In this document: positions 13,301 through 64,000 of the stretch, piece by piece
How positions within the stretch are numbered: position 1 is the stretch's first letter
How the letters are laid out: every line of letters starts with the position of its first letter
Translations under genes and position numbers: made by a program
The notes under the pieces: generated by a model
Told to the model about the DNA's origin: nothing
The model's input: only the letters and a program-made list of their open reading frames with translations
The model's database searches: none
Assembly (NCBI GenBank): GCA_977018835.1
Contig: OZ361257.1
Span: forward strand, 4,712,001 to 4,776,000
Direction of reading: 5' to 3'
DNA: 64,000 nt
DNA from: Minutocellus sp. GHC0000111
Lineage: Eukaryota

Positions 13301-13708
13301 TAGAGATCAGGTTGCTGCTATTGTCAAATGTGAGTTGCTCCGGTTAGGAGCGCCCTAGTTGTCCCAACGCTGCTGCTGGCGATGCCCACGCCACCCACAA
13401 AGATGAGTGCTTTGGCTGCAGTGCAATCACAGGACACTGCTCACCACATGCATTTCTTGCTGCTCTCACATGGCAATGAATGGAACATAAGCTTTGGTAG
13501 AGATCAGGGCACTCCTATGGTCAAACATGAGTTGCTCCAGTTAGGAGCGCCCTAGTTTTCCCAACGCTGCTGGCGACGCCCACACCACCCACAAAGATGC
13601 GTGCTCTGGCTGCAGTGCAACCACTGGACACTGCTCACCACATGCATTCCTTGCTGCTCTCACATGGCAATGAATGGAACATAAGCTTTGGTAGAGATCA
13701 GGGTGCTG

Positions 13709-42100: not shown

Positions 42101-44475
42101 AGGACACTGCTCACCACATGCATTCCTTGCTGCTCTCACATGGCAATTAATGGAACGTAAGCTTTGGTAGAGATCAGGGTGCTCCTATGGTCAAATGTGA
42201 GTTGCTCCAGTTAGGAGCGCCATGGCTTTCCCAACGCTGCTGGCGACGCCCCCACCACCCACAAAGATGAGTGCTTTGGCTGCGGTGCAATCACTGGACA
42301 CTGCTCACCACATGCATTCCTTGCTGCTCTCACATGGCAATGAACGGAACATAAGCTTTGGTAGAGATCAGGGTGCTCCTAAGGTCAAATGTGAGTTGCT
42401 CCAGTTAGGAGCGCCCTGATTTTCCCAACGCTGCTGGCGACGCCCACACCACCCACAAAGATGAGTGCTTTGGCTGCAGTGCAATCACAGGACACTGCTC
42501 ACCACATGCATTCCTTGCTGCTCTCACATGGCAATGAATGGAACACAAGCTTTGGTAGAGATCAGGGTGCTCCTATGGTCAAATGTGAGTTGCCCCAGTT
42601 AGGAGCGCCCTAGTTGTCCCAACGCTTCTGCTGGCGATGCCCACGCCATCCAAAAAGATGAGTGCTTTGGCTGCAGTGCAATCACAGGACACTGCTCACC
42701 ACATGCATTTCTTGCTGCTCTCACATGGCAATGAATGGAGCATAAGCTTTGGTAGAGATCAGGGCACTCCTATGGTCAAACATGAGTTGCTCCAGTTAGG
42801 AGCGCCCTAGTTTTCCCAACGCTGCTGGCGACACCCACACCACCCACAAAGATGCGTGCTTTGGCTGCAGTGCAATCACAGGACACTGCTCAACACATGC
42901 ATTCCTTGCTGCTCTCACATGGCAATGAATGGAACATAAGCTTTGGTAGAGATCAGGGTGCTGCTATGGTCAAATGTGAGTTGCCCCAGTTAGGAGCGCC
43001 CTAGTTGTCCCAACGCTGCTGCTGGCGATGCCCACGCCACCAACATAGATGAGTGCTTTGGCTGCAGTGCAATCACTGGACACTGCTCACCACATGCATT
43101 TCTTGCGAGGAGCGCCCTGGCTTTCCTAACGCTGCTGGCGACCACACACCACCCACAAAGATGCGTGCTTTGGCTGCAGTGCAATCACTGGACACTGCTC
43201 ACCACATGCATTTCTTGCTGCTCTCACATGGCAATGAATGGAACATAAGCTTTGGTAGAGATCAGGGTGCTCCTATTGTTGATGTTAGTTGCTCCAGTTA
43301 GGAGCGCCCTGATTTTCCCAACGCTGCTGTTGACGCCCACACCACCCACAAAGATGAGTGCTTTGGCTGCAGTGCAATCACAGGACACTGCTCACCACAT
43401 GCATTCCTTGCTGCTCTCACATGGCAATGAATGGAACACAAGCTTTGGTAGAGATCAGGGTGCTCCTGTGGTCAAACATGGGTTGCTCCAGCAAGCAGCG
43501 CCCTGATTTTCCCAACACTGCTGGCGACACCCACACCACCCACAAAGATGAGTGCTTTGGCTGCAGTGCAACCACAGGACACTGCTCACCACATGCATTC
43601 CTTGCTGCTCTCACAAGGCAATGAATGGAACATAAGCTTTGGTAGAGATCAGGGTGCTCCTATGGTCAAATGTGAGTTGATCCAGTTAGGACAGCCCTAA
43701 CTTTCCCAACGCTGCTGGCGACGCCCACACCACCCACAAAGATGAGTGCTTTGGCTGCAGTGCAATCACAGGACACTGCTCACCACATGCATTTCTTGCT
43801 GCTCTCACATTGTAATGAATGGAGCATAAGCTTTGGTAGAGATCAGGGTGCTCCTATGGTCAAACATGAGTTGCTCCAGTTAGGAGCGCCCTAGCTTTCC
43901 CAACGCTGCTGGTGACGCCCACATCCCCCCCACAAAGATGCGTGCTCTGGCTGCAGTGCAACCACAGGACACTGCTCACCACATGCATTCCTTGCTGCTC
44001 TCACATGGCAATGAATGGAACATAAGCTTTGGTAGAGATCAGGGTGCTGCTATGGTCAAATATGAGTTGCTCCAGTAATTAGCGCCCTGCTTTTCCCAAC
44101 GCTGCTGGCGACGCCCACACCACCCACAAAGATGAGTGCTTTGGCTGCAGTGCAATCACAGGACACTGCTCACCACATGCATTCCTTGCTGCTCTCACAT
44201 GGCAATGAATGGAACATAAGCTTTGGTAGAGATCAGGGTGCTGCTATGGTCAAACATGAATTGCTCCAGTTAGGAGCGCCCTAGTTTTCCCAACGCTGCT
44301 GGCGACGCCCACACCACCCACAAAGATGCGTGCTTTGGCTGCAGTGCAATCACAGGACACTGCTCACCACATGCATTCCTTGCTGCTCTCACATGGCAAT
44401 GAATGGAACATAAGCTTTGGTAGAGATCAGGGTGCTCCTATTATTGATGTGAGTTGCTCCAGTTAGGAGCGCCCT
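15046..44475. repeat. Tandem duplication of a 14,715-bp satellite block (15046-29760 and 29761-44475)
   Basis: Identical ORF-track entries and rare variants recur at offset 14,715 (15153/29868, 20414/35129, 24451/39166, 28275/42990). A unique out-of-register junction lies at 29760/29761. Confidence 0.92.
21200..28300. repeat. 3,824-bp (~20-monomer, includes one 120-bp deletion monomer) higher-order repeat; re-duplicated at ~35900-43000
   Basis: Offsets 21455/25279, 22370/26194 and 23683/27507; marker GCCGAAGTACAATC at 23352/27176 and 38067/41891. Boundaries approximate. Confidence 0.8.
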
Positions 44476-47400
44476 AGTTTTCCCAACGCTGCTGGCGCCG
44501 CCCACACCACCCACAAAGATGCATGCCTTGGCTGCAGTGCAATCACAGGACACTGCTCACCACATGCATTCCTTGCTGCTCTCACATGGCAATGAATGGA
44601 ACATAAGCTTTGGTAGAGATCAGGGTGCTGCTATGGTCAAATGTGAGTTGCTCCAGTTAGGAGAGCACTGATTTTCCCAACACTGCTGGCTGGCGACTAA
44701 CCAACAACCCACAAAGATGAGTGCTTTGGCTGCAGTGCAATCACAGGACACTGCTCACCACATGCATTCCTTGCTGCTCTCACATGGCAATGAATGGAAC
44801 ATAAGCTTTGGTAGAGATCAGGGTGCTCCTATGGTCAAATGTGAGTTGCTCCAGTTTGGAGAGCACTGATTTTCCCAACGCTGCTTGCTGGCGACTCCCC
44901 AACAACCCACAAAGATGAGTGCTTTGGCTGCAGTGCAATCACAGGACACTGCTCACCACATGCATTCCTTGCTGCTCTCACATGGCAATGAATGGAACAT
45001 AAGCTTTGGTAGAGATCAGGGTGCTCCTATTATTGATGTGAGTTGCTCCAGTTAGGAGCGCCCTAGTTTTCCCAACGCTGCTGGCGACGCCCACAAAGAT
45101 GAGTGCTTTGGCTGCAGTGCAATCACAGGACACTGCTCACCACATGCATTCCTTGCTGCTCTCACATGGCAATGAAGGAACATAAGCTTTGGTAGAGATC
45201 AGGGTGCTCCTGTGGTGACAACTGAGTTGCTCCAGTTAGGAGCGCCCTAGTTTTCCCAATGCTGCTGGTGACGCCCACACCACCCACAAAGATGCATGCT
45301 TTGGCTGCAGTGCAATCACAGGACACTGCTCACCACATGCATTCCTTGCTGCTCTCACATGGCAATGAATGGAACATAAGCTTTGGTAGAGATCAGGGTG
45401 CTCCTATGGTCAAACATGAGTTGCTCCAGTTAGGAGAGCACTGATTTTCCCAACGCTGCTGGCTGGCGATTCCCCAACCACCCACAAAGATGCATGCTTT
45501 GGCTGCAGTGCAATCACAGGACACTGCTCACCACATGCATTCCTTGCTGCTCTCACATGGCAATGAATGGAACACAAGCTTTGGCAGAGATCAGGGCACT
45601 CCTATGGTCAAATGTGAGTTGCTCCAGATAGTACAGCCCTAGTTTTCCCAACGCTGCTGGCGACACCCACACCACCCACAAAGATGCGTGCTTTGGCTGC
45701 AGTGCAATCACAGGACACTGCTCACCACATGCATTCCTTGCTGCTCTCACATGGCAATGAATGGAACATAAGCTTTGGTAGAGATCAGGGTGCTGCTATG
45801 GTCAAATGTGAGTTGCTCCAGTTAGGACAGCCCTAGCTTTCCCAACGCTGCTGGCGACGCCCACACCACCCACAAAGATGCGTGCTTTGGCTGCAGTGCA
45901 ATCACAGGACACTGCTCACCACATGCATTCCTTGCTGCTCTCACATGGCAATGAATGGAACATAAGCTTTGGTAGAGATCAGGGTGCTGCTATGGTCAAA
46001 TATGAGTTGCTCCAGTTAGGACAGCCCTAACTTTCCCAACGCTGCTGGTGACGCCCACACCACCCACAAAGATGCGTGCTTTGGCTGCAGTGCAATCACA
46101 GGACACTGCTCAACACATGCATTCCTTGCTGCTCTCACATGGCAATGAATGGAACATAAGCTTTGGTAGAGATCAGGGTGCTCCTATTGTCAAATGTGAG
46201 TTGATCCAGTTAGGACAGCCCTAACTTTCCCAACGCTGCTGGCGACGCCCACACCACCCACAAAGATGCGTGCTTTGGCTGCAGTGCAATCACAGGACAC
46301 TGCTTAACACATGCATTCCTTGCTGCTCTCACATGGCAATGAATGGAACATAAGCTTTGGTAGAGATCAGGGTGCTCCTATTGTCAAATGTGAGTTGATC
46401 CAGTTAGGAGCGACCCCTAGCTTTCCCAACGCTGCTGGCGACACCCACACCAGCCACAAAGATGCGTGCTTTGGCTGCAGTGCAATCACAGGACACTGCT
46501 CAACACATGCATTCCTTGCTGCTCTCACATGGCAATGAATGGAACATAAGCTTTGGTAGAGATCAGGGTGCTCCTATGGTCAAATGTGAGTTGCCCCAGT
46601 TAGGAGCGCCCTAGTTTTCCCAACGCTGCTGCTGGCGATGCCCACGCCACCCACATAGATGAGTGCTTTGGCTGCAGTGCAATCACAGGACACTGCTCAC
46701 CACATGCATTTCTTGCGAGGAGCGCCCTGGCTTTCCTAACGCTGCTGGCGACCCCACACCACCCACAAAGATGCGTGCTTTGGCTGCAGTGCAATCACTG
46801 GACACTGCTCACCACATGCATTTCTTGCTGCTCTCACATTGTAATGAATGGAACATAAGCTTTGGTAGAGATCAGGGTGCTCCTATGGTCAAATGTGAGT
46901 TGCTCCAGTTAGGAGCGCCATAGCTTTCCCAACGCTGCTGGCGACGCCCACACCACCCACAAAGATGAGTGCTTTGGCTGCAGTGCAATCACAGGACACT
47001 GCTCACCACATGCATTCCTTGCTGCTCTCACATGGCAATGAATGGAACATAAGCTTTGGTAGAGATCAGGGTGCTCCTATGGTCAAATGTGAGTTGCTCC
47101 AGTTAGGAGCGCCCCCTAGCTTTCCCAACGCTGCTGGCGACACCCACACCACCCACAAAGATGCGTGCTTTGGCTGCAGTGCAATCACAGGACACTGCTC
47201 ACCACATGCATTCCTTGCTGCTCTCACATGGCAATGAATGGAACATAAGCTTTGGTAGAGATCAGGGTGCTGCCATGGTCAAATATGAGTTGCTCCAGTT
47301 AGGAGCGCCCTAGCTTTCCCAACGCTGCTGGCGACGCCCACACCACCCACAAAGATGCGTGCTTTGGCTGCAGTGCAATCACTGGACACTGCTCACCACA

Positions 47401-50400
47401 TGCATTCGTTGCTGCTCTCACATGGCAATGAATGGAACACAAGCTTTGGTAGAGATAAGGGTGCTCCTGTGGTCAAACATGGGTTGCTCCAGCAAGCAGC
47501 GCCCTGATTTTCCCAACGCTGCTGGCGACGCCCACACCACCCACAAAGATGAGTGCTTTGGCTGCAGTGCAATCACTGGACACTGCTCACCACATGCATT
47601 CCTTGCTGCTCTCACATGGCAATGAATGGAACATAAGCTTTGGTAGATATCAGGGTGCTCCTATGGTCAAATGTGAGTTGCTCTAGTTAGGAGCGCCCTG
47701 CTTTTCCCAACGCTGCTGGCGACGCCCACACCACCCACAAAGATGAGTGCTTTGGCTGCAGTGCAATCACAGGACACTGCTCACCACATGCATTCGTTGC
47801 TGCTCTCACATGGCAATGAATGGAACATAAGCTTTGGAAGAGATCAGGGTGCTGCTATGGTCAAACATGAATTGCTCCAGTTAGGAGCGCCCTAGATAGT
47901 TTGTCCAACGCTGCTGGCGACGCCCCCACCACCCACAAAGATGAGTGCTTTGGCTGCAGTGCAATCACAGGACACTGCTCAACACATGCATTCCTTGCTG
48001 CTCTCACATGGCAATGAATGGAACATAAGCTTTGGTAGATATCAGGGTGCTCCTATGGTCAAATGTGAGTTGCTCTAGTTAGGAGCGCCCTGCTTTTCCC
48101 AACGCTGCTGGCGACGCCCACACCACCCACAAAGATGAGTGCTTTGGCTGCAGTGCAATCACAGGACACTGCTCACCACATGCATTCGTTGCTGCTCTCA
48201 CATGGCAATGAATGGAACATAAGCTTTGGTAGAGATCAGGGTGCTGCTATGGTCAAACATGAATTGCTCCAGTTAGGAGCGCAATAGTTTTCCCAACGAT
48301 GCTGGCGACGCCCACACCACCCACAAAGATGAGTGCTTTGGCTGCAGTGCAATCACAGGACACTGCTCACCACATGCATTCCTTGCTGCTCTCACATGGC
48401 AATGAATGGAACATAAGCTTTGGTAGAGATCAGGGTGCTCCTATGGTCAAACATGAATTGCTCCAGTTAGGAGCGCCCTAGATAGTTTGTCCAACGCTGC
48501 TGGCGACGCCCCCACCACCCACAAAGATGAGTGCTTTGGCTGCAGTGCAATCACAGGACACTGCTCAACACATGCATTCGTTGCTGATCTCACATGGCAA
48601 TGAATGGAACATAAGCTTTGGAAGAGATCAGGGTGCTGCTATGGTCAAACATGAATTGCTCCAGTTAGGAGCGCCCTAGATAGTTTGTCCAACGCTGCTG
48701 GCGACGCCCACACCACCCACAAAGATGAGTGCTTTGGCTGCAGTGCAATCACAGGACACTGCTCAACACATGCATTCCTTGCTGCTCTCACATGGCAATG
48801 AATGGAACATAAGCTTTGGTAGAGATCAGGGTGCTCCTATGGTCAAATGTGAGTTGATCCAGTTAGGACAGCCCTAACTTTCCCAACGCTGCTGGCGACG
48901 CCCACACCACCCACAAAGATGCGTGCTTTGGCTGCAGTGCAATCACTGGACACTGCTCACCACATGCATTCGTTGCTGCTCTCACATGGCAATGAATGGA
49001 ACACAAGCTTTGGTAGAGATAAGGGTGCTCCTGTGGTCAAACATGGGTTGCTCCAGCAAGCAGCGCCCTGATTTTCCCAACGCTGCTGGCGACGCCCACA
49101 CCACCCACAAAGATGCGTGCTTTGGCTGCAGTGCAATCACTGGACACTGCTCACCACATGCATTCCTTGCTGCTCTCACATGGCAATGAATGGAACATAA
49201 GCTTTGGTAGAGATCAGGGTGCTGCCATGGTCAAATATGAGTTGCTCCAGTTAGGAGCGCCCTAGCTTTCCCAACGCTGCTGGCGACGCCCACACCACCC
49301 ACAAAGATGCGTGCTTTGGCTGCAGTGCAATCACTGGACACTGCTCACCACATGCATTCGTTGCTGCTCTCACATGGCAATGAATGGAACACAAGCTTTG
49401 GTAGAGATAAGGGTGCTCCTGTGGTCAAACATGGGTTGCTCCAGCAAGCAGCGCCCTGATTTTCCCAACGCTGCTGGCGACGCCCACACCACCCACAAAG
49501 ATGAGTGCTTTGGCTGCAGTGCAATCACTGGACACTGCTCACCACATGCATTCCTTGCTGCTCTCACATGGCAATGAATGGAACATAAGCTTTGGTAGAT
49601 ATCAGGGTGCTCCTATGGTCAAATGTGAGTTGCTCTAGTTAGGAGCGCCCTAGCTTTCCCAACGCTGCTGGTGACGCCCACACCACCCACAAAGATACGT
49701 GCTTTGGCTGCAGTGCAATCACAAGACACTGCTCACCACATGCATTCCTTGCTGCTCTCACATGGCAATGAATGGAACATAAGCTTTGGTAGAGATCAGG
49801 GTGCTGCTATGGTCAAATGTGAGTTGCTCCGGTTAGGAGCGCCCTAGCTTTCCCAACGCTGCTGGCGACGCCCACACCACCCACAAAGATGAGTGCTTTG
49901 GCCGAAGTACAATCACTGGACACTGCTCACCACATGCATTCCTTGCTGCTCTCACATGGCAATGAATGGAACAGAAGCTTTGGTAGAGATCAGGGTGCTG
50001 CCATGGTCAAATATGAGTTGCTCCAGTTAGGACAGCCCTAACTTCCCCAACGCTGCTGGCGACACCCACACCACCCACAAAGATGCGTGCTTTGGCTGCA
50101 GTGCAATCACAGGACACTGCTCACCACATGCATTCCTTGCTGCTCTCACATGGCAATTAATGGAACGTAAGCTTTGGTAGAGATCAGGGTGCTCCTATGG
50201 TCAAATGTGAGTTGCTCCAGTTAGGAGCGCCATGGCTTTCCCAACGCTGCTGGCGACACCCCCACCACCCACAAAGATGAGTGCTTTGGCTGCGGTGCAA
50301 TCACTGGACACTGCTCACCACATGCATTCCTTGCTGCTCTCACATGGCAATGAACGGAACATAAGCTTTGGTAGAGATCAGGGTGCTCCTAAGGTCAAAT

Positions 50401-52999
50401 GTGAGTTGCTCCAGTTAGGAGCGCCCTGATTTTCCCAACGCTGCTGGCGACGCCCACACCACCCACAAAGATGAGTGCTTTGGCTGCAGTGCAATCACAG
50501 GACACTGCTCACCACATGCATTCCTTGCTGCTCTCACATGGCAATGAATGGAACACAAGCTTTGGTAGAGATCAGGGTGCTCCTGTGGTCAAACATGGGT
50601 TGCTCCAGCAAGCAGCGCCCTGATTTTCCCAACGCTGCTGGCGACACCCACACCACCCACAAAGATGAGTGCTTTGGCTGCAGTGCAACCACAGGACACT
50701 GCTCACCACATGCATTCCTTGCTGCTCTCACAAGGCAATGAATGGAACATAAGCTTTGGTAGAGATCAGGGTGCTCCTATGGTCAAATGTGAGTTGATCC
50801 AGTTAGGACAGCCCTAACTTTCCCAACGCTGCTGGCGACGCCCACACCACCCACAAAGATGCGTGCTTTGGCTGCAGTGCAATCACTGGACACTGCTCAA
50901 CACATGCATTCCTTGCTGCTCTCACATGGCAATGAATGGAACATAAGCTTTGGTAGAGATCAGGGTGCTGCTATGGTCACATGTGAGTTGCCCCAGTTAG
51001 GAGCGCCCTAGTTGTCCCAACGCTTCTGCTGGCGATGCCCACGCCATCCAAAAAGATGAGTGCTTTGGCTGCAGTGCAATCACAGGACACTGCTCACCAC
51101 ATGCATTTCTTGCTGCTCTCACATGGCAATGAATGGAGCATAAGCTTTGGTAGAGATCAGGGCACTCCTATGGTCAAACATGAGTTGCTCCAGTTAGGAG
51201 CGCCCTAGTTTTCCCAACGCTGCTGGCGACACCCACACCACCCACAAAGATGCGTGCTTTGGCTGCAGTGCAATCACAGGACACTGCTCAACACATGCAT
51301 TCCTTGCTGCTCTCACATGGCAATGAATGGAACATAAGCTTTGGTAGAGATCAGGGTGCTGCTATGGTCACATGTGAGTTGCCCCAGTTAGGAGCGCCCT
51401 AGTTGTCCCAACGCTGCTGCTGGCGATGCCCACGCCACCAACATAGATGAGTGCTTTGGCTGCAGTGCAATCACTGGACACTGCTCACCACATGCATTTC
51501 TTGCGAGGAGCGCCCTGGCTTTCCTAACGCTGCTGGCGACCACACACCACCCACAAAGATGCGTGCTTTGGCTGCAGTGCAATCACTGGACACTGCTCAC
51601 CACATGCATTTCTTGCTGCTCTCACATGGCAATGAATGGAACATAAGCTTTGGTAGAGATCAGGGTGCTCCTATTATTGATGTAAGTTGCTCCAGTTAGG
51701 AGCGCCCTAGTTTTCCCAACGCTGCTGGCGACGCCCACACCACCCACAAAGATGCGTGCTTTGGCTGCAGTGCAATCACAGGACACTGCTCACCACATGC
51801 ATTCCTTTCTGCTCTCACATGGCAATGAATGGAACATAAGCTTTGGTAGAGATCAGGGTGCTGCTATGGTCAAATGTGAGTTGCTCCAGTAAGGAGCGCC
51901 CTGCTTTTCCCAACGCTGCTGGCGACGCCCACACCACCCACAAAGATGCGTGCTTTGGCTGCAGTGCAATCACAGGACACTGCTCACCACATGCATTCCT
52001 TGCTGCTCTCACATGGCAATGAATGGAACATAAACTTTGGTAGAGATCAGGGTGCTCCTATGGTCAAATGTGAGTTGCTCCAGTTAGGAGCGCCCTGATT
52101 TTCCCAACGCTGCTGGCGACGCCCACACCACCCACAAAGATGCGTGCTTTGGCTGCAGTGCAATCACAGGACACTGCTCACCACATGCATTCTTTGCTGC
52201 TCTCACATGGCAATGAATGGAACATAAGCTTTGGTAGAGATCAGGGTGCTCCTATTATTGATGTAAGTTGCTCCAGTTAGGAGCGCCCTAGTTTTCCCAA
52301 CGCTGCTGGCGACGCCCACACCACCCACAAAGATGCGTGCTTTGGCTGCAGTGCAATCACAGGACACTGCTCACCACATGCATTCCTTGCTGCTCTCACA
52401 TGGCAATGAATGGAACATAAACTTTGGTAGAGATCAGGGTGCTCCTATGGTCAAATGTGAGTTGCTCCAGTTAGGAGCGCCCTGATTTTCCCAACGCTGC
52501 TGGCGACAACCACGCCACCCACAAAGATGAGTGCTTTGGCTGCAGTGCAATCACAGGACACTGCTCACCACATGCATTTCTTGCTGCTCTCACATTGTAA
52601 TGAATGGAGCATAAGCTTTGGTAGAGATCAGGGTGCTCCTATGGTCAAACATGAGTTGCTCCAGTTAGGAGCGCCCTAGCTTTCCCAACGCTGCTGGTGA
52701 CGCCCACATCCCCCCCACAAAGATGCGTGCTCTGGCTGCAGTGCAACCACAGGACACTGCTCACCACATGCATTCCTTGCTGCTCTCACATGGCAATGAA
52801 TGGAACATAAGCTTTGGTAGAGATCAGGGTGCTGCTATGGTCAAATATGAGTTGCTCCAGTAATTAGCGCCCTGCTTTTCCCAACGCTGCTGGCGACGCC
52901 CACACCACCCACAAAGATGAGTGCTTTGGCTGCAGTGCAATCACAGGACACTGCTCACCACATGCATTCCTTGCTGCTCTCACATGGCAATGAATGGAA

Positions 53000-55900
53000 C
53001 ATAAGCTTTGGTAGAGATCAGGGTGCTGCTATGGTCAAACATGAATTGCTCCAGTTAGGAGCGCCCTAGTTTTCCCAACGCTGCTGGCGACGCCCACACC
53101 ACCCACAAAGATGCGTGCTTTGGCTGCAGTGCAATCACAGGACACTGCTCACCACATGCATTCCTTTCTGCTCTCACATGGCAATGAATGGAACATAAGC
53201 TTTGGTAGAGATCAGGGTGCTGCTATGGTCAAATGTGAGTTGCTCCAGTAAGGAGCGCCCTGCTTTTCCCAACGCTGCTGGCGACGCCCACACCACCCAC
53301 AAAGATGCGTGCTTTGGCTGCAGTGCAATCACAGGACACTGCTCACCACATGCATTCCTTGCTGCTCTCACATGGCAATGAATGGAACATAAGCTTTGGT
53401 AGAGATCAGGGTGCTCCTATGGTCAAATGTGAGTTGCTCCAGTTAGGAGCGCCCTGATTTTCCCAACGCTGCTGGCGACGCCCACACCACCCACAAAGAT
53501 GCGTGCTTTGGCTGCAGTGCAATCACAGGACACTGCTCACCACATGCATTCTTTGCTGCTCTCACATGGCAATGAATGGAACATAAGCTTTGGTAGAGAT
53601 CAGGGTGCTCCTATTATTGATGTAAGTTGCTCCAGTTAGGAGCGCCCTAGTTTTCCCAACGCTGCTGGCGACGCCCACACCACCCACAAAGATGCGTGCT
53701 TTGGCTGCAGTGCAATCACAGGACACTGCTCACCACATGCATTTCTTGCTGCTCTCACATTGTAATGAATGGAGCATAAGCTTTGGTAGAGATCAGGGTG
53801 CTCCTATGGTCAAACATGAGTTGCTCCAGTTAGGAGCGCCCTAGCTTTCCCAACGCTGCTGGTGACGCCCACATCCCCCCCACAAAGATGCGTGCTCTGG
53901 CTGCAGTGCAACCACAGGACACTGCTCACCACATGCATTCCTTGCTGCTCTCACATGGCAATGAATGGAACATAAGCTTTGGTAGAGATCAGGGTGCTGC
54001 TATGGTCAAATATGAGTTGCTCCAGTAATTAGCGCCCTGCTTTTCCCAACGCTGCTGGCGACGCCCACACCACCCACAAAGATGAGTGCTTTGGCTGCAG
54101 TGCAATCACAGGACACTGCTCACCACATGCATTCCTTGCTGCTCTCACATGGCAATGAATGGAACATAAGCTTTGGTAGAGATCAGGGTGCTCCTATGGT
54201 CAAATGTGAGTTGCTCCAGTTTGGAGAGCACTGATTTTCCCAACGCTGCTTGCTGGCGACTCCCCAACAACCCACAAAGATGAGTGCTTTGGCTGCAGTG
54301 CAATCACAGGACACTGCTCACCACATGCATTCCTTGCTGCTCTCACATGGCAATGAATGGAACACATGCTTTGGCAGAGATCAGGGCACTCCTATGGTCA
54401 AATGTGAGTTGCTCCAGATAGTACAGCCCTAGTTTTCCCAACGCTGCTGGCGACACCCACACCACCCACAAAGATGCGTGCTTTGGCTGCAGTGCAATCA
54501 CTGGACACTGCTCACCACATGCATTCCTTGCTGCTCTCACATGGCAATGAATGGAACATAAGCTTTGGTAGAGATCAGGGTGCTCCTATTGTCAAATGTG
54601 AGTTGATCCAGTTAGGACAGCCCTAACTTTCCCAACGCTGCTGGCGACGCCCACACCACCCACAAAGATGCGTGCTTTGGCTGCAGTGCAATCACAGGAC
54701 ACTGCTCAACACATGCATTCCTTGCTGCTCTCACATGGCAATGAATGGAACATAAGCTTTGGTAGAGATCAGGGTGCTCCTATTGTCAAATGTGAGTTGA
54801 TCCAGTTAGGAGCGACCCCTAGCTTTCCCAACGCTGCTGGCGACACCCACACCAGCCACAAAGATGCGTGCTTTGGCTGCAGTGCAATCACAGGACACTG
54901 CTCAACACATGCATTCCTTGCTGCTCTCACATGGCAATGAATGGAACATAAGCTTTGGTAGAGATCAGGGTGCTCCTATGGTCAAATGTGAGTTGCCCCA
55001 GTTAGGAGCGCCCTAGTTGTCCCAACGCTGCTGCTGGCGATGCCCACGCCACCCACATAGATGAGTGCTTTGGCTGCAGTGCAATCACAGGACACTGCTC
55101 ACCACATGCATTCCTTGCTGCTCTCACATGGCAATGAATGGAACATAAGCTTTGGTAGAGATCAGGGTGCTGCTATGGTCAAACATGAATTGCTCCAGTT
55201 AGGAGCGCCCTAGTTTTCCCAACGCTGCTGGCGACGCCCACACCACCCACAAAGATGCGTGCTTTGGCTGCAGTGCAATCACAGGACACTGCTCACCACA
55301 TGCATTCCTTTCTGCTCTCACATGGCAATGAATGGAACATAAGCTTTGGTAGAGATCAGGGTGCTGCTATGGTCAAATGTGAGTTGCTCCAGTAAGGAGC
55401 GCCCTGCTTTTCCCAACGCTGCTGGCGACGCCCACACCACCCACAAAGATGCGTGCTTTGGCTGCAGTGCAATCACAGGACACTGCTCACCACATGCATT
55501 CCTTGCTGCTCTCACATGGCAATGAATGGAACATAAGCTTTGGTAGAGATCAGGGTGCTCCTATGGTCAAATGTGAGTTGCTCCAGTTAGGAGCGCCCTG
55601 ATTTTCCCAACGCTGCTGGCGACGCCCACACCACCCACAAAGATGCGTGCTTTGGCTGCAGTGCAATCACAGGACACTGCTCACCACATGCATTCTTTGC
55701 TGCTCTCACATGGCAATGAATGGAACATAAGCTTTGGTAGAGATCAGGGTGCTCCTATTATTGATGTAAGTTGCTCCAGTTAGGAGCGCCCTAGTTTTCC
55801 CAACGCTGCTGGCGACGCCCACACCACCCACAAAGATGCGTGCTTTGGCTGCAGTGCAATCACAGGACACTGCTCACCACATGCATTCCTTGCTGCTCTC

Positions 55901-57250
55901 ACATGGCAATGAATGGAACATAAGCTTTGGTAGAGATCAGGGTGCTCCTATTATTGATGTGAGTTGCTCCAGTTAGGAGCGCCCTAGTTTTCCCAACGCT
56001 GCTGGCGCCGCCCACACCACCCACAAAGATGCATGCCTTGGCTGCAGTGCAATCACAGGACACTGCTCACCACATGCATTCCTTGCTGCTCTCACATGGC
56101 AATGAATGGAACATAAGCTTTGGTAGAGATCAGGGTGCTGCTATGGTCAAATGTGAGTTGCTCCAGTTAGGAGAGCACTGATTTTCCCAACACTGCTGGC
56201 TGGCGACTAACCAACAACCCACAAAGATGAGTGCTTTGGCTGCAGTGCAATCACAGGACACTGCTCACCACATGCATTCCTTGCTGCTCTCACATGGCAA
56301 TGAATGGAACATAAGCTTTGGTAGAGATCAGGGTGCTCCTATGGTCAAATGTGAGTTGCTCCAGTTTGGAGAGCACTGATTTTCCCAACGCTGCTTGCTG
56401 GCGACTCCCCAACAACCCACAAAGATGAGTGCTTTGGCTGCAGTGCAATCACAGGACACTGCTCACCACATGCATTCCTTGCTGCTCTCACATGGCAATG
56501 AATGGAACACATGCTTTGGCAGAGATCAGGGCACTCCTATGGTCAAATGTGAGTTGCTCCAGATAGTACAGCCCTAGTTTTCCCAACGCTGCTGGCGACA
56601 CCCACACCACCCACAAAGATGCGTGCTTTGGCTGCAGTGCAATCACTGGACACTGCTCACCACATGCATTCCTTGCTGCTCTCACATGGCAATGAATGGA
56701 ACATAAGCTTTGGTAGAGATCAGGGTGCTCCTATTGTCAAATGTGAGTTGATCCAGTTAGGACAGCCCTAACTTTCCCAACGCTGCTGGCGACGCCCACA
56801 CCACCCACAAAGATGCGTGCTTTGGCTGCAGTGCAATCACAGGACACTGCTCAACACATGCATTCCTTGCTGCTCTCACATGGCAATGAATGGAACATAA
56901 GCTTTGGTAGAGATCAGGGTGCTCCTATTGTCAAATGTGAGTTGATCCAGTTAGGAGCGACCCCTAGCTTTCCCAACGCTGCTGGCGACACCCACACCAG
57001 CCACAAAGATGCGTGCTTTGGCTGCAGTGCAATCACAGGACACTGCTCAACACATGCATTCCTTGCTGCTCTCACATGGCAATGAATGGAACATAAGCTT
57101 TGGTAGAGATCAGGGTGCTCCTATGGTCAAATGTGAGTTGCCCCAGTTAGGAGCGCCCTAGTTGTCCCAACGCTGCTGCTGGCGATGCCCACGCCACCCA
57201 CATAGATGAGTGCTTTGGCTGCAGTGCAATCACAGGACACTGCTCACCAC
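53000..57250. repeat. ~2,145-bp (11-monomer) imperfect higher-order repeat near the retrotransposon
   Basis: Offsets 53174/55318, 54250/56395 and 54668/56813. Internal monomers are partly replaced; boundaries approximate. Confidence 0.7.
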
Positions 57251-58594
57251 ATGCATTTCTTGCGAGGAGCGCCCTGGCTTTCCTAACGCTGCTGGCGACC
57301 CCACACCACCCACAAAGATGCGTGCTTTGGCTGCAGTGCAATCACTGGACACTGCTCACCACATGCATTTCTTGCTGCTCTCACATTGTAATGAATGGAA
57401 CATAAGCTTTGGTAGAGATCAGGGTGCTCCTATGGTCAAATGTGAGTTGCTCCAGTTAGGAGCGCCCTAGCTTTCCCAACGCTGCTGGCGACGCCCACAC
57501 CACCCACAAAGATGAGTGCTTTGGCTGCAGTGCAATCACAGGACACTGCTCACCACATGCATTCCTTGCTGCTCTCACATGGCAATGAATGGAACATAAG
57601 CTTTGGTAGAGATCAGGGTGCTCCTATGGTCAAATGTGAGTTGCTCCAGTTAGGAGCGCCCCCTAGCTTTCCCAACGCTGCTGGCGACACCCACACCACC
57701 CACAAAGATGCGTGCTTTGGCTGCAGTGCAATCACAGGACACTGCTCACCACATGCATTCCTTGCTGCTCTCACATGGCAATGAATGGAACATAAGCTTT
57801 GGTAGAGATCAGGGTGCTCCTATGGTCAAATGTGAGTTGCTCCAGTTAGGAGCGCCCCCTAGCTTTCCCAACGCTGCTGGCGACACCCACACCACCCACA
57901 AAGATGCGTGCTTTGGCTGCAGTGCAATCACAGGACACTGCTCACCACATGCATTTCTTGCTGCTCTCACATGGCAATGAATGGAACATAAGCTTTGGTA
58001 GAGATCAGGTTGCTGCTATGGTCAAATGTGAGTTGCTCCAGTAAGGAGCGCCCTAGTTGTCCCAACGCTGCTGCTGGCGATGCCCACGCCACCCACATAG
58101 ATGAGTGCTTTGGCTGCAGTGCAATCACAGGACACTGCTCACCACATGAATTTCTTGCTGCTCTCACATTGTAATGAATGGAGCATAAGCTTTGGTAGAG
58201 ATCAGGGTGCTCCTATGGCTAAACATGAGTTGCTCCAGTTAGGAGCGCCCTAGTTTTTCCAACGCTGCTGGCGACGCCCGCACCACCCACAAAGATGCGT
58301 GCTTTGGCTGCAGTGCAATCACAGGACACTGCTCACCACATGCATTTCTTGCTGCTCTCACATGGCAATGAATGGAACATAAGCTTTGGTAGAGATCAGG
58401 GTGCTCCTATTATTGATGTTAGTTGCTCCAGTTAGGAGCGCCCTGATTTTCCCAACGCTGCTGGCGACGCCCACACCACCCACAAAGATGCGTGCTTTGG
58501 CTGCAGTGCAATCACAGGACACTGCTCACCACATGCATTCCTTGCTGCTCTCACATGGCAATGAATGGAACATAAGCTTTGGTAGAGATCAGGG

Positions 58595-58790
58595 TGCTAA
58601 GAGGTCCTAAAGCTAAGCTAGATAGATATAGCTAGTAGAGGTTAGTAGGACCTACGTAGATGAAAAATGGGCCATCGGAGATGTCGTTGGCCCATGGATC
58701 AATTGTCAGGAGAGGGCACTGAGTCAGTGGTCTGATCACCGTAAGTACTGTACGAATATATACGTACGTACGTATCCCACGGTGTCAACA
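58595..58790 (-). repeat. 3' LTR, 196 bp (minus strand TGTTGACACC...CTCTTAGCA)
   Basis: Begins with canonical TGTTG directly after the purine tract and ends in CA at the satellite junction. Imperfect terminal inverted repeat TGTTGA/TTAGCA. The 5' LTR is outside the window, so the ends are not cross-checked. Confidence 0.8.
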
Positions 58791-58799
58791 CCCCCTCGC
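58791..58799 (-). promoter_or_regulatory. Polypurine tract (plus-strand primer) GCGAGGGGG
   Basis: Purine run immediately 5' of the TG of the 3' LTR on the element strand. Confidence 0.75.
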
Positions 58800-58838
58800 A
58801 GATCAATGACTAGTGCCATTGAATCTACATGTAGAGTC

Positions 58839-61800
58839 CTAATTGGAATCTACATGTAAGTAGACTGGTCGCATGTCGTCATGGTAGCGGGCGGGATTGT
58901 GCTTTTTAAAATAATTTGCGCTCCTTTCCGCCAGCACACCTGGAATTGTCGTTGCTCCATGCGATCTTGGACCCAGTAGAATCTCATGTCCATAGCCTTA
59001 GACCGTCTTTGCTTGACGGTTTTATTGGCGATTCCAGATGCTGTAGAGTTGTCAACGACGACAGCAGTAGGGGGTTGCGGGTGACCCATTTCTTCTAGTG
59101 CTGCCCGGATTGGTGCTGCATCTTTCATGTTGAAAAATAGTCCTCCCAATTCGGCTTCAGCGGCTGAGGACATTGCATGCTTGATGATGTTGGCATTGAC
59201 GAGGATGGCTCCATTCATTGGTGGCATGGGATCACTTGAGTCAGGCTGGCGGTGCGGGTCCTTAGGTCGGGAGCTTAGGTAGAAGTGCCCTCTGAGCTTG
59301 CTTCTTGATTTCGGGGCTGATAAGTGGGAGGCGTCGCTATGTACATGTGGGATCATGTCTGACTTGACGTGTCGAATGACTGCGTCGGGATGGGTTGCAA
59401 GGTAATCTAGAAGCTTCTTGGCATCTTGTCGAGTGCGCTCGGTAGCTTTGGATTGTTCCGCTGAGATGCTGTTGAGCGCCGGTAAAATTGTTGAATCAAT
59501 TGCTCGACCATAGCACAAGGAGCTGCCCACCACCTGTTGAATTTTGTTGATGCCTTTGGCGTCGAGTGGTGGTGAGTCGTCTTCCGGTTCTGGCAGCTGG
59601 GGTCCCGGGCCATACGTCGGATGATTCCATCGACATGGCGCATGCTCGGGCCGTGAGGGGCGGTCGTGTTGGAACTTGTGGCGCATCTCCTTGACGTAGT
59701 TAGGCATAGATAGATCCACCCATTTGGCCTCGTAGTTCCACTCGAGTTGAACACCACAATAAAGTCGGCCTTCCCAATCGGTAGTGATCTTATACTTGGA
59801 GTTGAGGGCCTGAATGAGATGGTCTGCATGCTCTTTCCCGACATGCTTTGCTCCAAAATCGTCAACGGTTAGGCAAAAGGTAATTGGGCGGGTTTTGTGC
59901 CTCCAAAGGCCGGCAGTTCGCTTGCATGGGAAATAGCCATGGGGTTTGAGATGCTTGACAAGTTGATCGTAGGCTAGGCGCCCTGCCTGGGGTAATCCAT
60001 GCATTCCGCCATCGATTCTGACCAATACTCGACCATTCTTTACTTTGTCGTGGAGGTCGTAGGCTTCCATGACTTTGTCGGGGATGAGAGCTACTGGCGC
60101 CCACATCCATTCTGGCTCTGGCATGGTGCTATTGAGATAGAAGTCACTGATATCAATTCCCATGAAACGAGCGTTGTCTGTAGAGATGACGCTGTTGAAA
60201 AGTAACTTTGCAGTCAACATTTCAGCGGTCGGGGTCGAGACTGTACCAGGGTAATGAATTTTGTCGCCTCCTGCAGTCCATCGAACTCGATTGGGATTTG
60301 GTTTATGGGAGCGATAGTCGGCGACAATGCGGAGGTATGTGGCTTTTTTCCCCCGAGGCAGTTCGGACCAGTGGACGAAAGCCATTGTATTGGAGGGAAT
60401 GCTAGCACTGTTTCCAACTCGGCCGTCCGTTAGCCGTCCAATTTCATCGATGTTTGCTTGAATGAATTGGTCCCTCATGTTCGTTTTGAGGAGGTCGCGG
60501 TATTCAAGCATTGCACCAGTGTCGGGATGGACGACGGCGTTAGCAAAGTGTTGGAGGTTTGGTAAAGGCGAGAAAGCTGCCATGTTGGCCACGTGGTGGG
60601 TGCTACGACGAGATGATGGCCGTGGGGGAGGGTTCCGATGTGGAATGTACCCTCGCTGACGGTATGATCGTCGTCGAGGTGGTTTGGCGGTCGATGGTTT
60701 GGACTTGCTTGTCGATTTTGCTGGAGCTGGTAATGTTGGAGTGGCATCGATCGTTGGAGACTTGCGTTTACGTTGCCGACGGGAGGTGGGGGCATTGGAA
60801 CTTTGATTGGATGTTACGACGGTTGCATCGTCGCCGTTGGGCTCGTCTACTGCAACCAAAGGATCGTAGCAGTTGGAAGAAACTGACGAGCGAGGTGGCG
60901 CGTTGGATCGACGTGATCGACGGCTTTTAGTGGTGGCTGCATCATATGTGGAGGATTTTGCCACCCTCGGAGGTTGCTGGGGCTGAGGTAACGGAGCGTT
61001 GGGGTTGGAGACAAGGTGACGGCCTGCTTCAGTCTCGTTCATCTCTTCTACGTCGTCGTCCTCGTATTTGATTTTGTAGTGCTTATACTTCTTGTCAAAT
61101 GCAACGACTCTACCCTTGTAATTGCGATCTCCAAACACTTTGGCGACGATGGTACCGTGGCCGAATCGTTGGGAGTCGTCATCGTTCTCCAGCACCCTCG
61201 GAGCTGCGGTTGTCTGCATCGTCTCATCAGAGGCGGAGGTGGCAGATTCTGCTGGGGTCACTCTGTTGAAAATCTCGGAGAGCTTTTCTAAAGCTTGACG
61301 ATGCTCGTCTCGAAGGGGAGCAAGGGGTGCCGCTGGATGTGGATTCTGTAGAGCGTGCAGGAGTTCATGAGCTGCGACTATTGCTGCATCGGCCGACGAC
61401 GTTTTGGGTACCGGAATCATTTTGGGGAGCCAGACGAGTGTGTTACCAGTGCGTTCCGCCCGAGTTTCCTCAATCCAAACCTTGTAACACCGGTAGTGTT
61501 CCATGGCTGGACCGACATAGTACCCATCAACGCCATGCGGGGACCAAGAGCCGCGTGCCGAGGGCATCTCGTGAAAGATGACCTTGCATCCGAGGGGGCC
61601 GAGAGGCGTGCGATTGAAATCAAAGCCGCCATTGAGTTGCTCGTACGCTGATAGTCGAGGGTTGACTCGGGATGCTCTCAGGAAATTGAGGGTCATTACC
61701 GCCTGCTCCAGCAATTTATCCCACAAGATGAGGGGAAAGTCGGGATCGGTACCACAGAGAATCGCAATGAAATGATTCTTAAAGGTTCGAATGGCTCGTT

Positions 61801-62989
61801 CGGCCGCATTTCGGCGGTGGGAGTGCGTTGGGGTCAATTGAAAATCTACATCCTTTTCTTCCATGAACTCCTTCAGCTCTCGACTCACTTCATTATCCAA
61901 TCGTTGCAATTTTGGGCGAAATCCTCGCTTGGAGAGGTATTCGAAAATAGTTTGGTACGCTCGGCGCATTTCCGTTCCCGATCGGCTTTTCATTGGTTCG
62001 GCCAAGATGCTGTTGGAGTCATAGTCATAGACGACCATTATGTGCTGGTGGCCAGAAATAGACGATACCAAGAAACGGCCGGGCTGATCTGAGAAGATCT
62101 GGCCCGTTATGTCATGACAATCAGCAAAGACATAGTTGGTGCGCTGTTGGTGTTGTGCCGGGTGGAGATCCTGCTCGGTTTCGTCCACCCCAGGGAGAGA
62201 TTTTGGCGTAGCCATCGACCGTTTGGGCTTGGTCGACCTGATGTTCTTGCGCTGCTGGTCTAAGTGACCTTTAATCATCGGCATCGACTGTGGCATGTGC
62301 TTACGTACAAGCTTTGATGTGAGGCCTGGCCAAGATCTATAAAATCCCGCATCGATTGCTTTGCACCAGGTAGATAGCTGAGGACTGCCAGCGCACCAAT
62401 GTAAAAAGGCTACACGTTCCGGAACCGTCTCCTGGGCAATTGCGGCGTTGGCAGCATGTTGGATGACGTTGGGGCCGGGGAGCGGCGACATGGTGGGCGA
62501 GCAATTAAGATCTACCATCCACAATTTCGTTGAGGGGTCTCGTTTACCTTGCAAAATGACGGTGTTGTCCTTGGCGATGACTACCGAATCCTTATCGAAA
62601 GTGGCAACACATCCATCGTCACACAGCTGCCCAATCGATAGGAGCGATGATGCCATATTGTTGAAAATATAGGCCTTGCTAGCCGATGGGGAAACCCCAG
62701 GGAGGCGAAGCGTGGCCTCGTGGGTGTTCGTCATTGTGCTGTTATCCGGAAGGGTGACGCTGATAGGAATTGCTGTCTGTTGGACGCTGAAAATAGGGCC
62801 ATCGTACGATAGGTATTGGGGCTTCTGGACAAAATGTCCCGTCGTTCCAGTATCTGCTGCGAGGACGATTGGCTCTTGAGTTGGAGGTTTGCTTTTTGAC
62901 GTAAGAAAAGCTAACGAAGGCGGGGAGGAGGTGGATTCAGATATGCTATCCTCTGTTTTATACTGATTAATATCCACCGTCCCTCCCGC
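58839..62989 (-). pseudogene. pol: pol polyprotein (aspartic protease, GAG-pre-integrase, rve integrase, Tudor-like domain, RT, RNase H); long ORF open but probably inactivated
   Basis: PR motif ADTGTTGHF (~62831-62860); IN D-D-E in FSDQPGRF / RLDNE / NAAERAIRTFKNHF; SH3-like GCKV...GYYVG...HYRCYKVW; RT motifs DISDFYL, GLPQAG, TVDDFG; RH motifs SDAS, SSAAEAE, DNSTA, SKAMDMRFYW. Frameshift at ~58920 and many substitutions at conserved residues. The ORF-track start (62977) is GTG, not ATG. Confidence 0.9.
61013..61165 (-). other. Tudor-like (royal family) domain within the integrase C-terminal extension
   Basis: FGHGTIVAKVFGDRNYKGRVVAFDKKYKHYKIKYEDDDVEEMNETEAGRHL fits the Tudor pattern G-x-x-V-x-K-x-F...Y-x-G-x-V...Y-x-I-x-Y-x-D-(G/D)-D-x-E. 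Recognised by eye; no HMM run. Confidence 0.7.
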
Positions 62990-64000
62990 TCAGTTACGAC
63001 GCGAGCTACCACCGCAAGGATTGTACTTGGTGGCGTTATCAACGTGGTTGGGCCCTTTGCAAGTGCATTCAAAGCTGGGGTGGTTGGACGAATAGCCGCA
63101 CGTGTGGCAATAATGGCCTCTGGGGAGGATCGACTGCAGTTCCCGCTTCTCCTGGTGGTTGAGGTTAGGACCTTGGCCTGGGAAGTGGCCGGCGCCGTTC
63201 TGCTGGCCACCGCCGCGGTAGCCTCCACTGCCACCAGTGTGGTTGCGTCCCTCACGCAGAACGCGGTTCTCGGCCTTGAGTGAAGCTATTTCTTGGCGAA
63301 GTTTGGCAATGGTGTCATCCTTCTCGTTGCTCTTTTTGGCGAGGTTCGCCATCATGGCTTGGTTGGTCTTGAGGGCTTCGGTGGTATCAGCCAAAAGGAG
63401 ATCGGCTCGAGAAAGAAATGGATCGTCCGAGGCCGATGAGGCCAAATTCGCGCCATGATATCCTGCCGCTTCGGTGGTGGTATTGGCCATCTTCTTATCA
63501 CACCAATCGCGGAAGTCCGACTGCATGTTGGCCCACGTGCGTTCGGCCTCCGGTCTGTCGTCCCAGTCCTCGCATGCCTTCTTTGCCAATGAGAACCTGC
63601 GCACGGAGCGGTAGAACTTGGAGACCTTTTGCTTGTTGGTGAAGGGTTCGCCGGCCGTTTCAAACGCCTTGAAGACTTTGTTGAATATGGCGATGTGGGT
63701 GTCGATGGGTCCCCCGTCGTGCTGCTTCTCGAGCTGCTTCTCTAATTCCTCCTTCTGAGTCTCGTTGAATTTCAAGTAGCGATCGGCAATGCTGTCGATG
63801 ATTTGGCGGATGGTGACTGGCTGGAAACCGAGCATGTCATCTTCGAGATGATTGATGTAGACGGCGTCGATCGAGTCGAGGAGGAGATTCTTGATCGCCG
63901 TGTTGACTTGCTCGTGCAAGTTGTAGTGGCCCTTTTCGATGTGATGTCCCCGGATTGCACGATCGCGTTGGTCTAGATTGGCCACGGCGGGAATGGTGGG
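62990..64000 (-). CDS. gag: gag (capsid/nucleocapsid), 5'-truncated by the window edge
   Basis: The frame stays open to 64000 (PTIPAVANL...). It has the motif W...P...RTW.N....F, a coiled-coil, a Gly-rich linker and a C-terminal Cys/His cluster YCHTCGYSSNHPSFEC...H...AT..N..GGS, and ends at TGA 62992-62990. Confidence 0.85.
   Translation of the reverse strand, partial: PTIPAVANLDQRDRAIRGHHIEKGHYNLHEQVNTAIKNLLLDSIDAVYINHLEDDMLGFQPVTIRQIIDSIADRYLKFNETQKEELEKQLEKQHDGGPIDTHIAIFNKVFKAFETAGEPFTNKQKVSKFYRSVRRFSLAKKACEDWDDRPEAERTWANMQSDFRDWCDKKMANTTTEAAGYHGANLASSASDDPFLSRADLLLADTTEALKTNQAMMANLAKKSNEKDDTIAKLRQEIASLKAENRVLREGRNHTGGSGGYRGGGQQNGAGHFPGQGPNLNHQEKRELQSILPRGHYCHTCGYSSNHPSFECTCKGPNHVDNATKYNPCGGSSRRN

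Follow-up and report, generated by a model that had tools for sequence, protein, structure and literature searches.

RIP, known from filamentous ascomycetes, places a dinucleotide-specific load of transitions on both strands of repeats and cripples transposon genes. A-to-I editing of RNA by ADAR or fungal Tad2-Tad3, and the DNA editors derived from TadA, act on an A with a 5' U/T neighbour to give A>G, and TAG is the optimum of ADAR. The closest described system is that of Bigelowiella natans, for which a preprint (Mettrop et al. 2026, bioRxiv 10.64898/2026.01.13.699255) describes TpA-only hypermutation of integrated NCLDV and virophage DNA, at a de novo rate that in some lines exceeds background ~1000-fold. 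The same source also found TpA-depleted coding sequences with RT and DDE domains, and proposed an ADAT2-type deaminase. The original prediction for the locus studied here, namely that no system of this kind had been described, has to be withdrawn, since the preprint holds the same signature. Our literature search, which had most subscription papers outside its scope, found, apart from this preprint, no report of hypermutation at TpA, whether for diatoms or for LTR retrotransposons, and nothing on Tudor-bearing copia elements or on CoDi elements in sponges.

The locus lies in a window of 64 kb (the whole stretch of DNA that was analysed). Like the B. natans process as the preprint presents it, which acts on genomic invading DNA, the changes are TpA>TpG and TpA>CpA, on both strands and GC-ward. 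That process concerns single-copy silent viral DNA in a rhizarian, whereas here, probably in a diatom, an LTR retrotransposon present in many copies is targeted and, to a weak degree, a satellite; saturation is partial and CpG decay runs alongside. A preference for RTA/TAY is seen here, while the main text of the preprint reports none, and the magnitudes are different quantities (only an 80-fold context excess was measured here, and the ~1000-fold of B. natans is a de novo rate). RIP likewise produces dinucleotide-specific, both-strand transitions on repeats. However, its C>T at CpA creates TpA and stop codons, whereas in this copy TpA is consumed and the RIP-type class (CpA>TpA) is empty (0/241 CpA targets).

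The copia element and its surroundings

The features of the window, in the order of their coordinates, are as follows.

1..58598, no strand: satellite array with a 194-bp unit in ~300 units (TpA O/E 0.42, CpG O/E 0.33, CpA/TpG 1.78)
58595..58790, minus: 3' LTR of 196 bp with TG...CA ends, TA-rich (22 TA, O/E 1.54), directly adjoining the satellite
58791..58797, minus: short putative polypurine tract just inside the 3' LTR, read from the sequence, its role being that expected from copia architecture
58850..62989, minus: pol ORF of 1379 codons stop to stop, with protease, integrase, Tudor-like domain, reverse transcriptase and RNase H
58934..62608, minus: region holding the 18 nonsynonymous TpA>CpA/TpG changes scored at conserved columns (aa 128-1352)
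59669..60259, minus: reverse transcriptase core (Pfam RVT_2, aa 911-1107, 24.4 bits, under the curated cut-off of 31.6)
61028..61156, minus: Tudor-like domain (Pfam PF21743, aa 612-654, E 7e-11), between integrase and reverse transcriptase
61460..62100, minus: integrase core and SH3-like region (weak Pfam DDE_3 and SH3_retrovirus matches)
62990..64000, minus: gag-like ORF, truncated by the window end, in the same frame as pol with one TGA between them

The edge of the LTR is marked by varied loose ends at 58790-58791 in three of the four compared runs, and the 5' LTR lies beyond the window. The pol copy is broken: relative to three of the four compared runs it has a 10-nt gap near 58914, because of which the pol tail is out of frame with its relatives.

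The diatom Ty1/copia elements known as CoDi are described as PR-IN-RT-RH, with gag and pol separated by no more than one stop or frameshift and with TG..CA LTRs of 153-844 bp (Maumus et al. 2009, PMC2806351). The element shares these features (gag, one stop, a PR-IN-RT-RH pol and a short TG..CA LTR), but differs in the Tudor-like domain after the integrase. For gag and for RT-RNase H, two of the best three Atlas clusters each are Bacillariophyta and one is Rhodophyta, with the phylum known for 1-4 members of each cluster. It is likely that the element is a copia retrotransposon of a diatom. The best-matching relatives occur partly in sponge metagenomes.

TpA-confined change in the window copy

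The main reference consisted of protein columns where three related subfamilies agree, at which nonsynonymous T>C was counted on either strand. In the window copy, 18/145 TpA targets (~12%) were changed as T>C or A>G compared to 1/655 other T targets (Fisher p 3e-13), that is, a frequency ~80-fold over other T. The ten codons named in the original prediction as TpA-specific A:T->G:C changes were all located where it had placed them in the minus-strand pol ORF (58850-62989), and all ten are among these 18; the predicted TpA enrichment of the polarised spectrum is borne out. As seven of the ten are codons for Tyr, in which TA is always present, non-Tyr TpA targets were counted separately, with a similar outcome (7/68 vs 1/655, p 4e-7). 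With two subfamilies as the reference, the counts were 22/162 TpA and 9/813 other T (p 1e-11). Polarising by distant relatives alone was dropped, as multi-letter changes dilute the signal (with only the 117 distant relatives as reference, 6 sense TpA T>C in 51 differences, 19 of them multi-letter).

The copy differs from the reference at 49 columns, of which 8 ambiguous and 1 multi-letter were excluded from the class counts. TpA-type changes make up 18 of the 40 classed; the remainder includes CpG decay and transversions, with older lineage substitutions among them. The two strands are balanced, as had been predicted (11/72 sense T>C, 7/73 sense A>G, p 0.33). This distinguishes the pattern from plain RNA editing by ADAR, for which sense A>G only is expected, since 11 of the 18 changes are sense T>C. 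APOBEC-type change was also rightly set aside, with 4 sense G>A outside CpG among the 49 changes vs 18 TpA changes. The flanking base matters: RTA was changed at 16/90 targets and YTA at 2/55 (p 0.017), which is to say that RTA/TAY is favoured, and TAG is disfavoured (2/33).

Conserved tyrosines illustrate the effect on the protein. In the window copy, 11/44 were lost to His or Cys, with 0 changes in reverse, while two sister-subfamily proteins have no such loss (P0127 0/42, P0128 0/23). Two close copies, P0126 and P0130, lose different tyrosines (4/12 and 2/5), and at two positions the same Tyr column reads His or Cys depending on the copy. A weak test, restricted to Tyr columns with conservation of >=90%, gave a loss of only 3/21 in the window copy and of 0 to 2 in each of 119 relatives. 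The absence of premature stops that the original prediction relied on is true, but as an argument it is near-empty, for the observed CpG decay would itself be expected to create only ~1 stop.

That decay is a second, minor process in the same copy, CpG>TpG of the 5mC type, which the original prediction overlooked. C>T was found at 8/233 CpG targets compared to 6/701 other C (p 0.01), ~3.6-fold weaker than the TpA process. CG methylation focused on TEs is described for a diatom (DNMT5; PMC9998398), and decay of 5mC at CpG, as in diatom TEs, is present here as this minor component; it cannot yield T>C at TpA.

Sibling copies, direction of change and the satellite

Sibling copies in public runs bear changes of their own, and a single TA can be CA in one and TG in another; among four records, 6/15 variable TA-class steps show both. 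Of the 28 polarisable TA-class differences, 27 go AT>GC, which upholds the predicted polarity opposite to RIP. Over 59300-60020, where all 32 rows are covered, TA-class differences account for 21/27 transitions (~22% expected), and 8/23 window TA steps vary compared to 1/40 CG steps. For adjacent CA/TG double differences we considered CpG decay as the cause, and rejected it where outgroup residues decide: the 16 such rows comprise 10 polarised AT>GC, 0 opposite, 4 silent and 2 left undecided by the outgroup. In the TA-rich 3' LTR, comparison with a deep contig over 58600-58742 gave 3 letter differences, none at TA; as ~2 TA differences were expected by a hand estimate, the zero is not significant.

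Contigs from RNA libraries are changed at 9/13, 10/15 and 3/4 variable TA-class steps, vs 7/15 in the window. Not all of the altered residues are private to the copy. Among distant relatives the window residue is found in 0/117 at eight of the cited sites, 0/98 at the integrase site and 1/117 at the one left, but some TpA-type changes are common to several copies, and at 59514 the window state is also that of a protein with 91% identity and of two RNA contigs. The DNA-level comparison of sites applies to those other than 59326 and 60001, each within 30 letters of an end of the compared stretch, and 58935, which falls outside the 40 rows (of 145) that were covered. Some changes have likely passed from copy to copy or arisen repeatedly at hot spots. 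DNA of close relatives was not found in one metagenome scan and one viral scan; a locus from a second metagenome scan (L001), with 76% identity over 312 bp and apparently rearranged, was set aside as too distant to polarise.

The flanking satellite shows a weaker version of the TpA signal. The relative rate of T>C is 1.4-1.5 at TpA and 0.27-0.38 elsewhere, an excess of 4-5 fold that equals in size the satellite's CpG excess; this estimate rests on 5 TA steps per unit, with non-independent events. C>T at CpG is in modest excess too, and the GTA preference was not repeated in the satellite. Taken as an observation, the element carries a TpA-confined T:A>C:G change on both strands, which is derived, strand-balanced and 5'-TAY-3'-favoured, and which differs from copy to copy.

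Candidate mechanisms and their meaning

Our preferred reading, to which we give a probability of roughly 0.55, is that a TadA/ADAT-type adenine deaminase of the host, which silenced repeat chromatin likely attracts, made the changes in genomic DNA once the element had inserted. Acting on the A of TpA, the candidate enzyme would produce hypoxanthine, to be copied as G. TpA being self-complementary, a change on either strand would give TG or CA, and the target would be lost on both strands. Such a target explains why one site can show CA and TG but not CG, and why Tyr codons disappear while no new stops arise; the copy would have been caught part-way, with ~12% of scored targets changed. A>G after a 5' U/T is shared with ADAR, Tad2-Tad3 and TadA, and the TAC/TAT preference is one that we take to fit TadA-family enzymes. 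That the targets carry CpG methylation as well is suggested by the weaker CpG decay found alongside. On the other hand, the sequence provides no evidence of the enzyme itself, and RNA-library contigs as changed as the window, together with the shared changes, are awkward for a strictly post-insertion, inactivating defence.

Sequence-wise, a deaminated A and a modified T that mispairs give identical letters. A modified thymine at TpA in repeats (e.g. 5-hydroxymethyl- or formyl-uracil) would pair with G and produce T>C without an adenine deaminase, and hydroxymethyluracil does occur at TpA and TpC in dinoflagellate DNA. We regard this as unlikely, if the best survivor among the alternatives, given that TpC shows no excess at conserved columns (0/243) and that no report of hydroxymethyluracil in diatoms was among the matches listed, as judged by titles and abstract openings.

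Also unlikely, and next in order, is a polymerase-eta-like origin (A>G at WA) in error-prone synthesis during repair of heterochromatin, by which the changes would be a by-product of silencing with no dedicated editor. Polymerase eta prefers TA among WA sites, and the modest parallel excess at TpA and CpG in the satellite would fit repair at methylated DNA. The signal in the element is far narrower than a WA signature, however, with AA/TT changed at 1/197 conserved-column targets against a TpA frequency ~80-fold over other T, and other change classes are not raised.

Improbable in turn is a genome-wide TpA mutator bias of the host, which would show up here because the dead element escapes selection. 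In its favour, the 64-kb window holds no single-copy host gene for comparison. Against it, the excess is ~80-fold in the element and 4-5 fold in the adjacent satellite, the signature in B. natans is limited to two integrated viral regions according to the preprint (bioRxiv 10.64898/2026.01.13.699255), and the baseline mutation bias of the diatom Phaeodactylum is GC>AT (PMC6604790).

Quite improbable is editing within the retrotransposition cycle, in which A-to-I on element RNA (sense A>G) would combine with editing of the RNA:DNA hybrid on its minus-strand cDNA (sense T>C), to be fixed at insertion and inherited by copy lineages. It would be consistent with changes shared among copies and present in RNA-library contigs, and with a non-significant lean of the TpA changes to RT-RNase H (12/70 targets vs 3/54 in protease-integrase, p 0.06; 3/21 in the linker). 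Yet it requires two substrates to give balanced strands (p 0.33), and TAG is disfavoured despite being the ADAR optimum. An excess is present in the satellite as well, for which no reverse transcription is known. In B. natans, the preprint describes the changes as arising de novo in silent single-copy integrated DNA (bioRxiv 10.64898/2026.01.13.699255).

An artefact of assembly or polishing, or a wrong polarity (CA>TA in the relatives), is largely refuted already: although all compared runs are contigs and none raw reads, the window letters recur in independent runs at 59175, 59349, 59371, 59514, 59845 and 59850, other assemblies carry independent changes of their own, and polarity is fixed by 117 distant relatives.

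Returning to the deaminase, we infer by analogy that it may belong to the same pathway as the B. natans process and may serve as defence. The interpretation in the original prediction is partly supported, its adenine-modifying enzyme directed to repeats or heterochromatin being a candidate. More tentatively still, and with the odds somewhat against it, a TadA/ADAT-like deaminase reading 5'-TAY-3' in methylated heterochromatin could be a defence common to stramenopiles and rhizarians, a mirror image of RIP that erodes retrotransposons and satellites copy by copy without stops, with a recently spread Tudor-bearing copia family caught mid-process. It is unlikely that the host is the sponge rather than a diatom, in which case an animal genome would have the process.

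The observation itself is confirmed as real, and joins a barely known process whose signature is so far in print as one preprint, on one species (B. natans) and its integrated viruses. That it turns up in another lineage, in a family of LTR retrotransposons and with both strand and direction established, suggests a wider, unrecognised DNA-editing defence. A partly edited multi-copy family lets the motif (RTA/TAY) and the hot spots be measured, which narrows the class of enzyme. In such genomes, TE ages, dN/dS and 'intact ORF' calls are biased, because motifs die without stops.

A copia element beside a satellite array

Next to a satellite array lies, on the minus strand, the 3' portion of a Ty1/copia LTR retrotransposon. 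The features are listed below (positions in the window).

1-58598: satellite array, 194-bp unit
58595-58790, minus strand: LTR, 196 bp, TG..CA ends
between pol and LTR, minus strand: short purine tract
58850-62989, minus strand: pol ORF, 1379 codons, in frame with the gag-like ORF; protease, integrase, Tudor-like domain, RT and RNase H
61028-61156, minus strand: Tudor-like domain PF21743 (E 7e-11), downstream of integrase
62990-64000, minus strand: gag-like ORF, truncated where the window ends

The gag/stop/pol layout and the LTR agree with those reported for diatom CoDi elements (PMC2806351). A single TGA (62990-62992, minus strand) parts gag from pol, both in the same frame; pol may be translated by readthrough or from a start of its own. 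Compared with other copies, the window copy lacks an in-frame segment of 21 nt at 60825. It also lacks 10 nt near 58914 relative to three of four runs, a frame-shifting gap that throws the pol tail out of frame, so the copy is broken whatever the stop-codon argument says. That argument, advanced in the original prediction, stands only in part: premature stops are absent, as expected of TA loss (zero stop-making opportunities), but this carries little weight because CpG decay alone predicts only about one stop.

Among 120 listed relatives the PF21743 label is found in three, the closest ones, and the segment is absent from four aligned distant elements. By analogy with the chromodomains of chromoviruses, the Tudor-like domain could guide integration to heterochromatin such as the adjoining satellite; among the papers listed in a literature search for Tudor-bearing copia elements, none dealt with it. 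The satellite is possibly centromeric or heterochromatic. Its ORF positions recur at spacings of ~5.3 kb and ~14.7 kb (higher-order duplications), and truncated units of 112 and 120 bp also occur. Loose ends at the LTR edge vary among contigs, which suggests several insertions. A distant-subfamily metagenome contig (L001, 1-1079) carries the end motifs of the window LTR followed by an integrase piece; its assembly is probably collapsed or rearranged.

Changes at TpA in pol, sibling copies and satellite

An RT-RNase H protein search returned 1245 relatives; the 120 listed were used, supplemented by 44 sequences from the clusters of nine of these. With three subfamilies (~85, 81 and 69% identity) as outgroups, the window departs at 49 of the 892 columns where all three agree: 18 T>C at TpA (either strand), 8 C>T at CpG and 14 other single changes, 9 ambiguous or multi-letter columns being excluded from the class counts. 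TpA was changed at 18/145 targets and other T at 1/655 (p 3e-13). The excess persists without Tyr codons (7/68 TpA, p 4e-7) and with two subfamilies as reference (22/162 TpA versus 9/813 other T). C>T affected 8/233 CpG versus 6/701 other C (p 0.01). All ten codons cited in the original prediction fall within the 18 changes, and the window's residues at those sites, claimed to be non-ancestral, are almost never present in distant relatives. Both strands are affected, as had been claimed (sense T>C 11/72, sense A>G 7/73, p 0.33), and a purine ahead of T is favoured, equivalent to 5'-TAY-3' on the A strand (16/90 versus 2/55, p 0.017).

Public contigs were aligned to the element in two sets (40 of 145 rows; all 32 rows for 59300-60020). 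Within 59300-60020, TA/CA/TG steps hold 21/27 transitions versus ~22% expected, and 8/23 window TA steps vary versus 1/40 CG steps; over 66 pooled rows, such TA-class changes make up 39/53 transitions. By direction, 27/28 outgroup-polarisable TA-class differences are AT>GC, 14 of these in other copies. At 6/15 variable TA-class steps one record has CA and another TG, two columns have His in one copy and Cys in another, and two close proteins (97%) from other assemblies have lost Tyr residues other than those lost in the window copy; sister-subfamily proteins have lost none. The changes are therefore largely independent copy by copy. Some hits are also shared between copies: at six cited sites, independent runs carry the same letters as the window, which excludes assembly error as the source of these letters. 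The state at 59514 is common to two RNA contigs and one 91%-identical protein, and at 59845 the entire depth of one deep run agrees with the window. Such common states could stem from hot spots, from inheritance through transposition, or from exchange between copies by recombination. RNA-library contigs, which are no proof of transcription, carry a hit load equal to the window's.

TA is frequent in the LTR (22 per 196 bp; O/E 1.54, versus pol 0.60, gag 0.41 and satellite 0.42), and 143 bp of it (58600-58742) showed zero TA differences from a deep contig, which is not significant. Selection on the cis-acting LTR or shielding from editing is possibly responsible.

In the satellite, 291/304 units (119 distinct) were aligned and rates taken from a parsimony tree. 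CpG O/E is 0.33, and the commonest states of three strongly polymorphic steps are TG, CA and TA, never CG. T>C at TpA has a relative rate of 1.41 on terminal branches (8 events, nominal p 0.003) and 1.49 over the whole tree (21 events), other T>C changes having 0.27-0.38; C>T runs at 1.65-1.92 at CpG versus 0.30-0.47. That the tandem repeat is affected as well has modest support, given gene conversion and the five TA steps that each unit offers.

A candidate deaminase and its rivals

Context, polarity, strand balance and copy independence are shown by the data. We infer, at a probability of about 0.55, that a putative TadA/ADAT-type enzyme deaminates the A of TpA in genomic DNA; its substrate would be silenced, CpG-methylated repeats, and the deaminated A would be taken as G when replicated. 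The TAY preference agrees with TadA-family enzymes and does not fit the ADAR optimum, UAG. As diatom background, TEs of Phaeodactylum carry CG methylation by DNMT5 (PMC9998398), and the baseline mutation bias there is GC>AT (PMC6604790).

Each rival is improbable. A modified T that mispairs comes foremost, followed by an error-prone polymerase. A TpA bias across the whole genome is less likely again. Editing in the course of reverse transcription is doubtful, and an artefact is scarcely credible. The element also fails the tests for RIP (0/241 CpA targets changed in conserved columns), ADAR-type RNA editing and APOBEC editing.

Host and relation to a published system

The likeliest host is probably a sponge-associated diatom. 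Bacillariophyta predominate among the closest Atlas clusters of gag and RT-RNase H, as judged from very few members on record. The stretch turns up in public runs from sponge metagenomes and metatranscriptomes, from marine metatranscriptomes and from coded organisms. The host may instead be the sponge itself or another protist. The element (58700-64000) occurs at ~97-99% identity in runs from several sponge and marine studies, and in one of these runs the word depth is 5000-30000.

A study of mutation-accumulation lines of Bigelowiella natans (Mettrop et al., bioRxiv 10.64898/2026.01.13.699255) reports a mutation rate raised ~1000-fold in two integrated viral regions, where every A>G and T>C change lies at TpA. 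It also finds RT and DDE domains enriched among CDS depleted in TpA, and puts forward an ADAT2 homologue as the enzyme. The window element matches that process in the three features compared (context, both strands, direction) and works like it. The original observation is thus confirmed and its interpretation partly supported; the belief that no such system had been described gives way to this one earlier case. The words 'diatom', 'satellite' and 'retrotranspos' are absent from the main text of that preprint, and among the papers listed in literature searches none dealt with TpA hypermutation in diatoms or LTR retrotransposons. Relative to the published case, the LTR retrotransposon is a new target class and the lineage is probably new, and the family is seen at partial saturation, with the RTA/TAY bias measurable.
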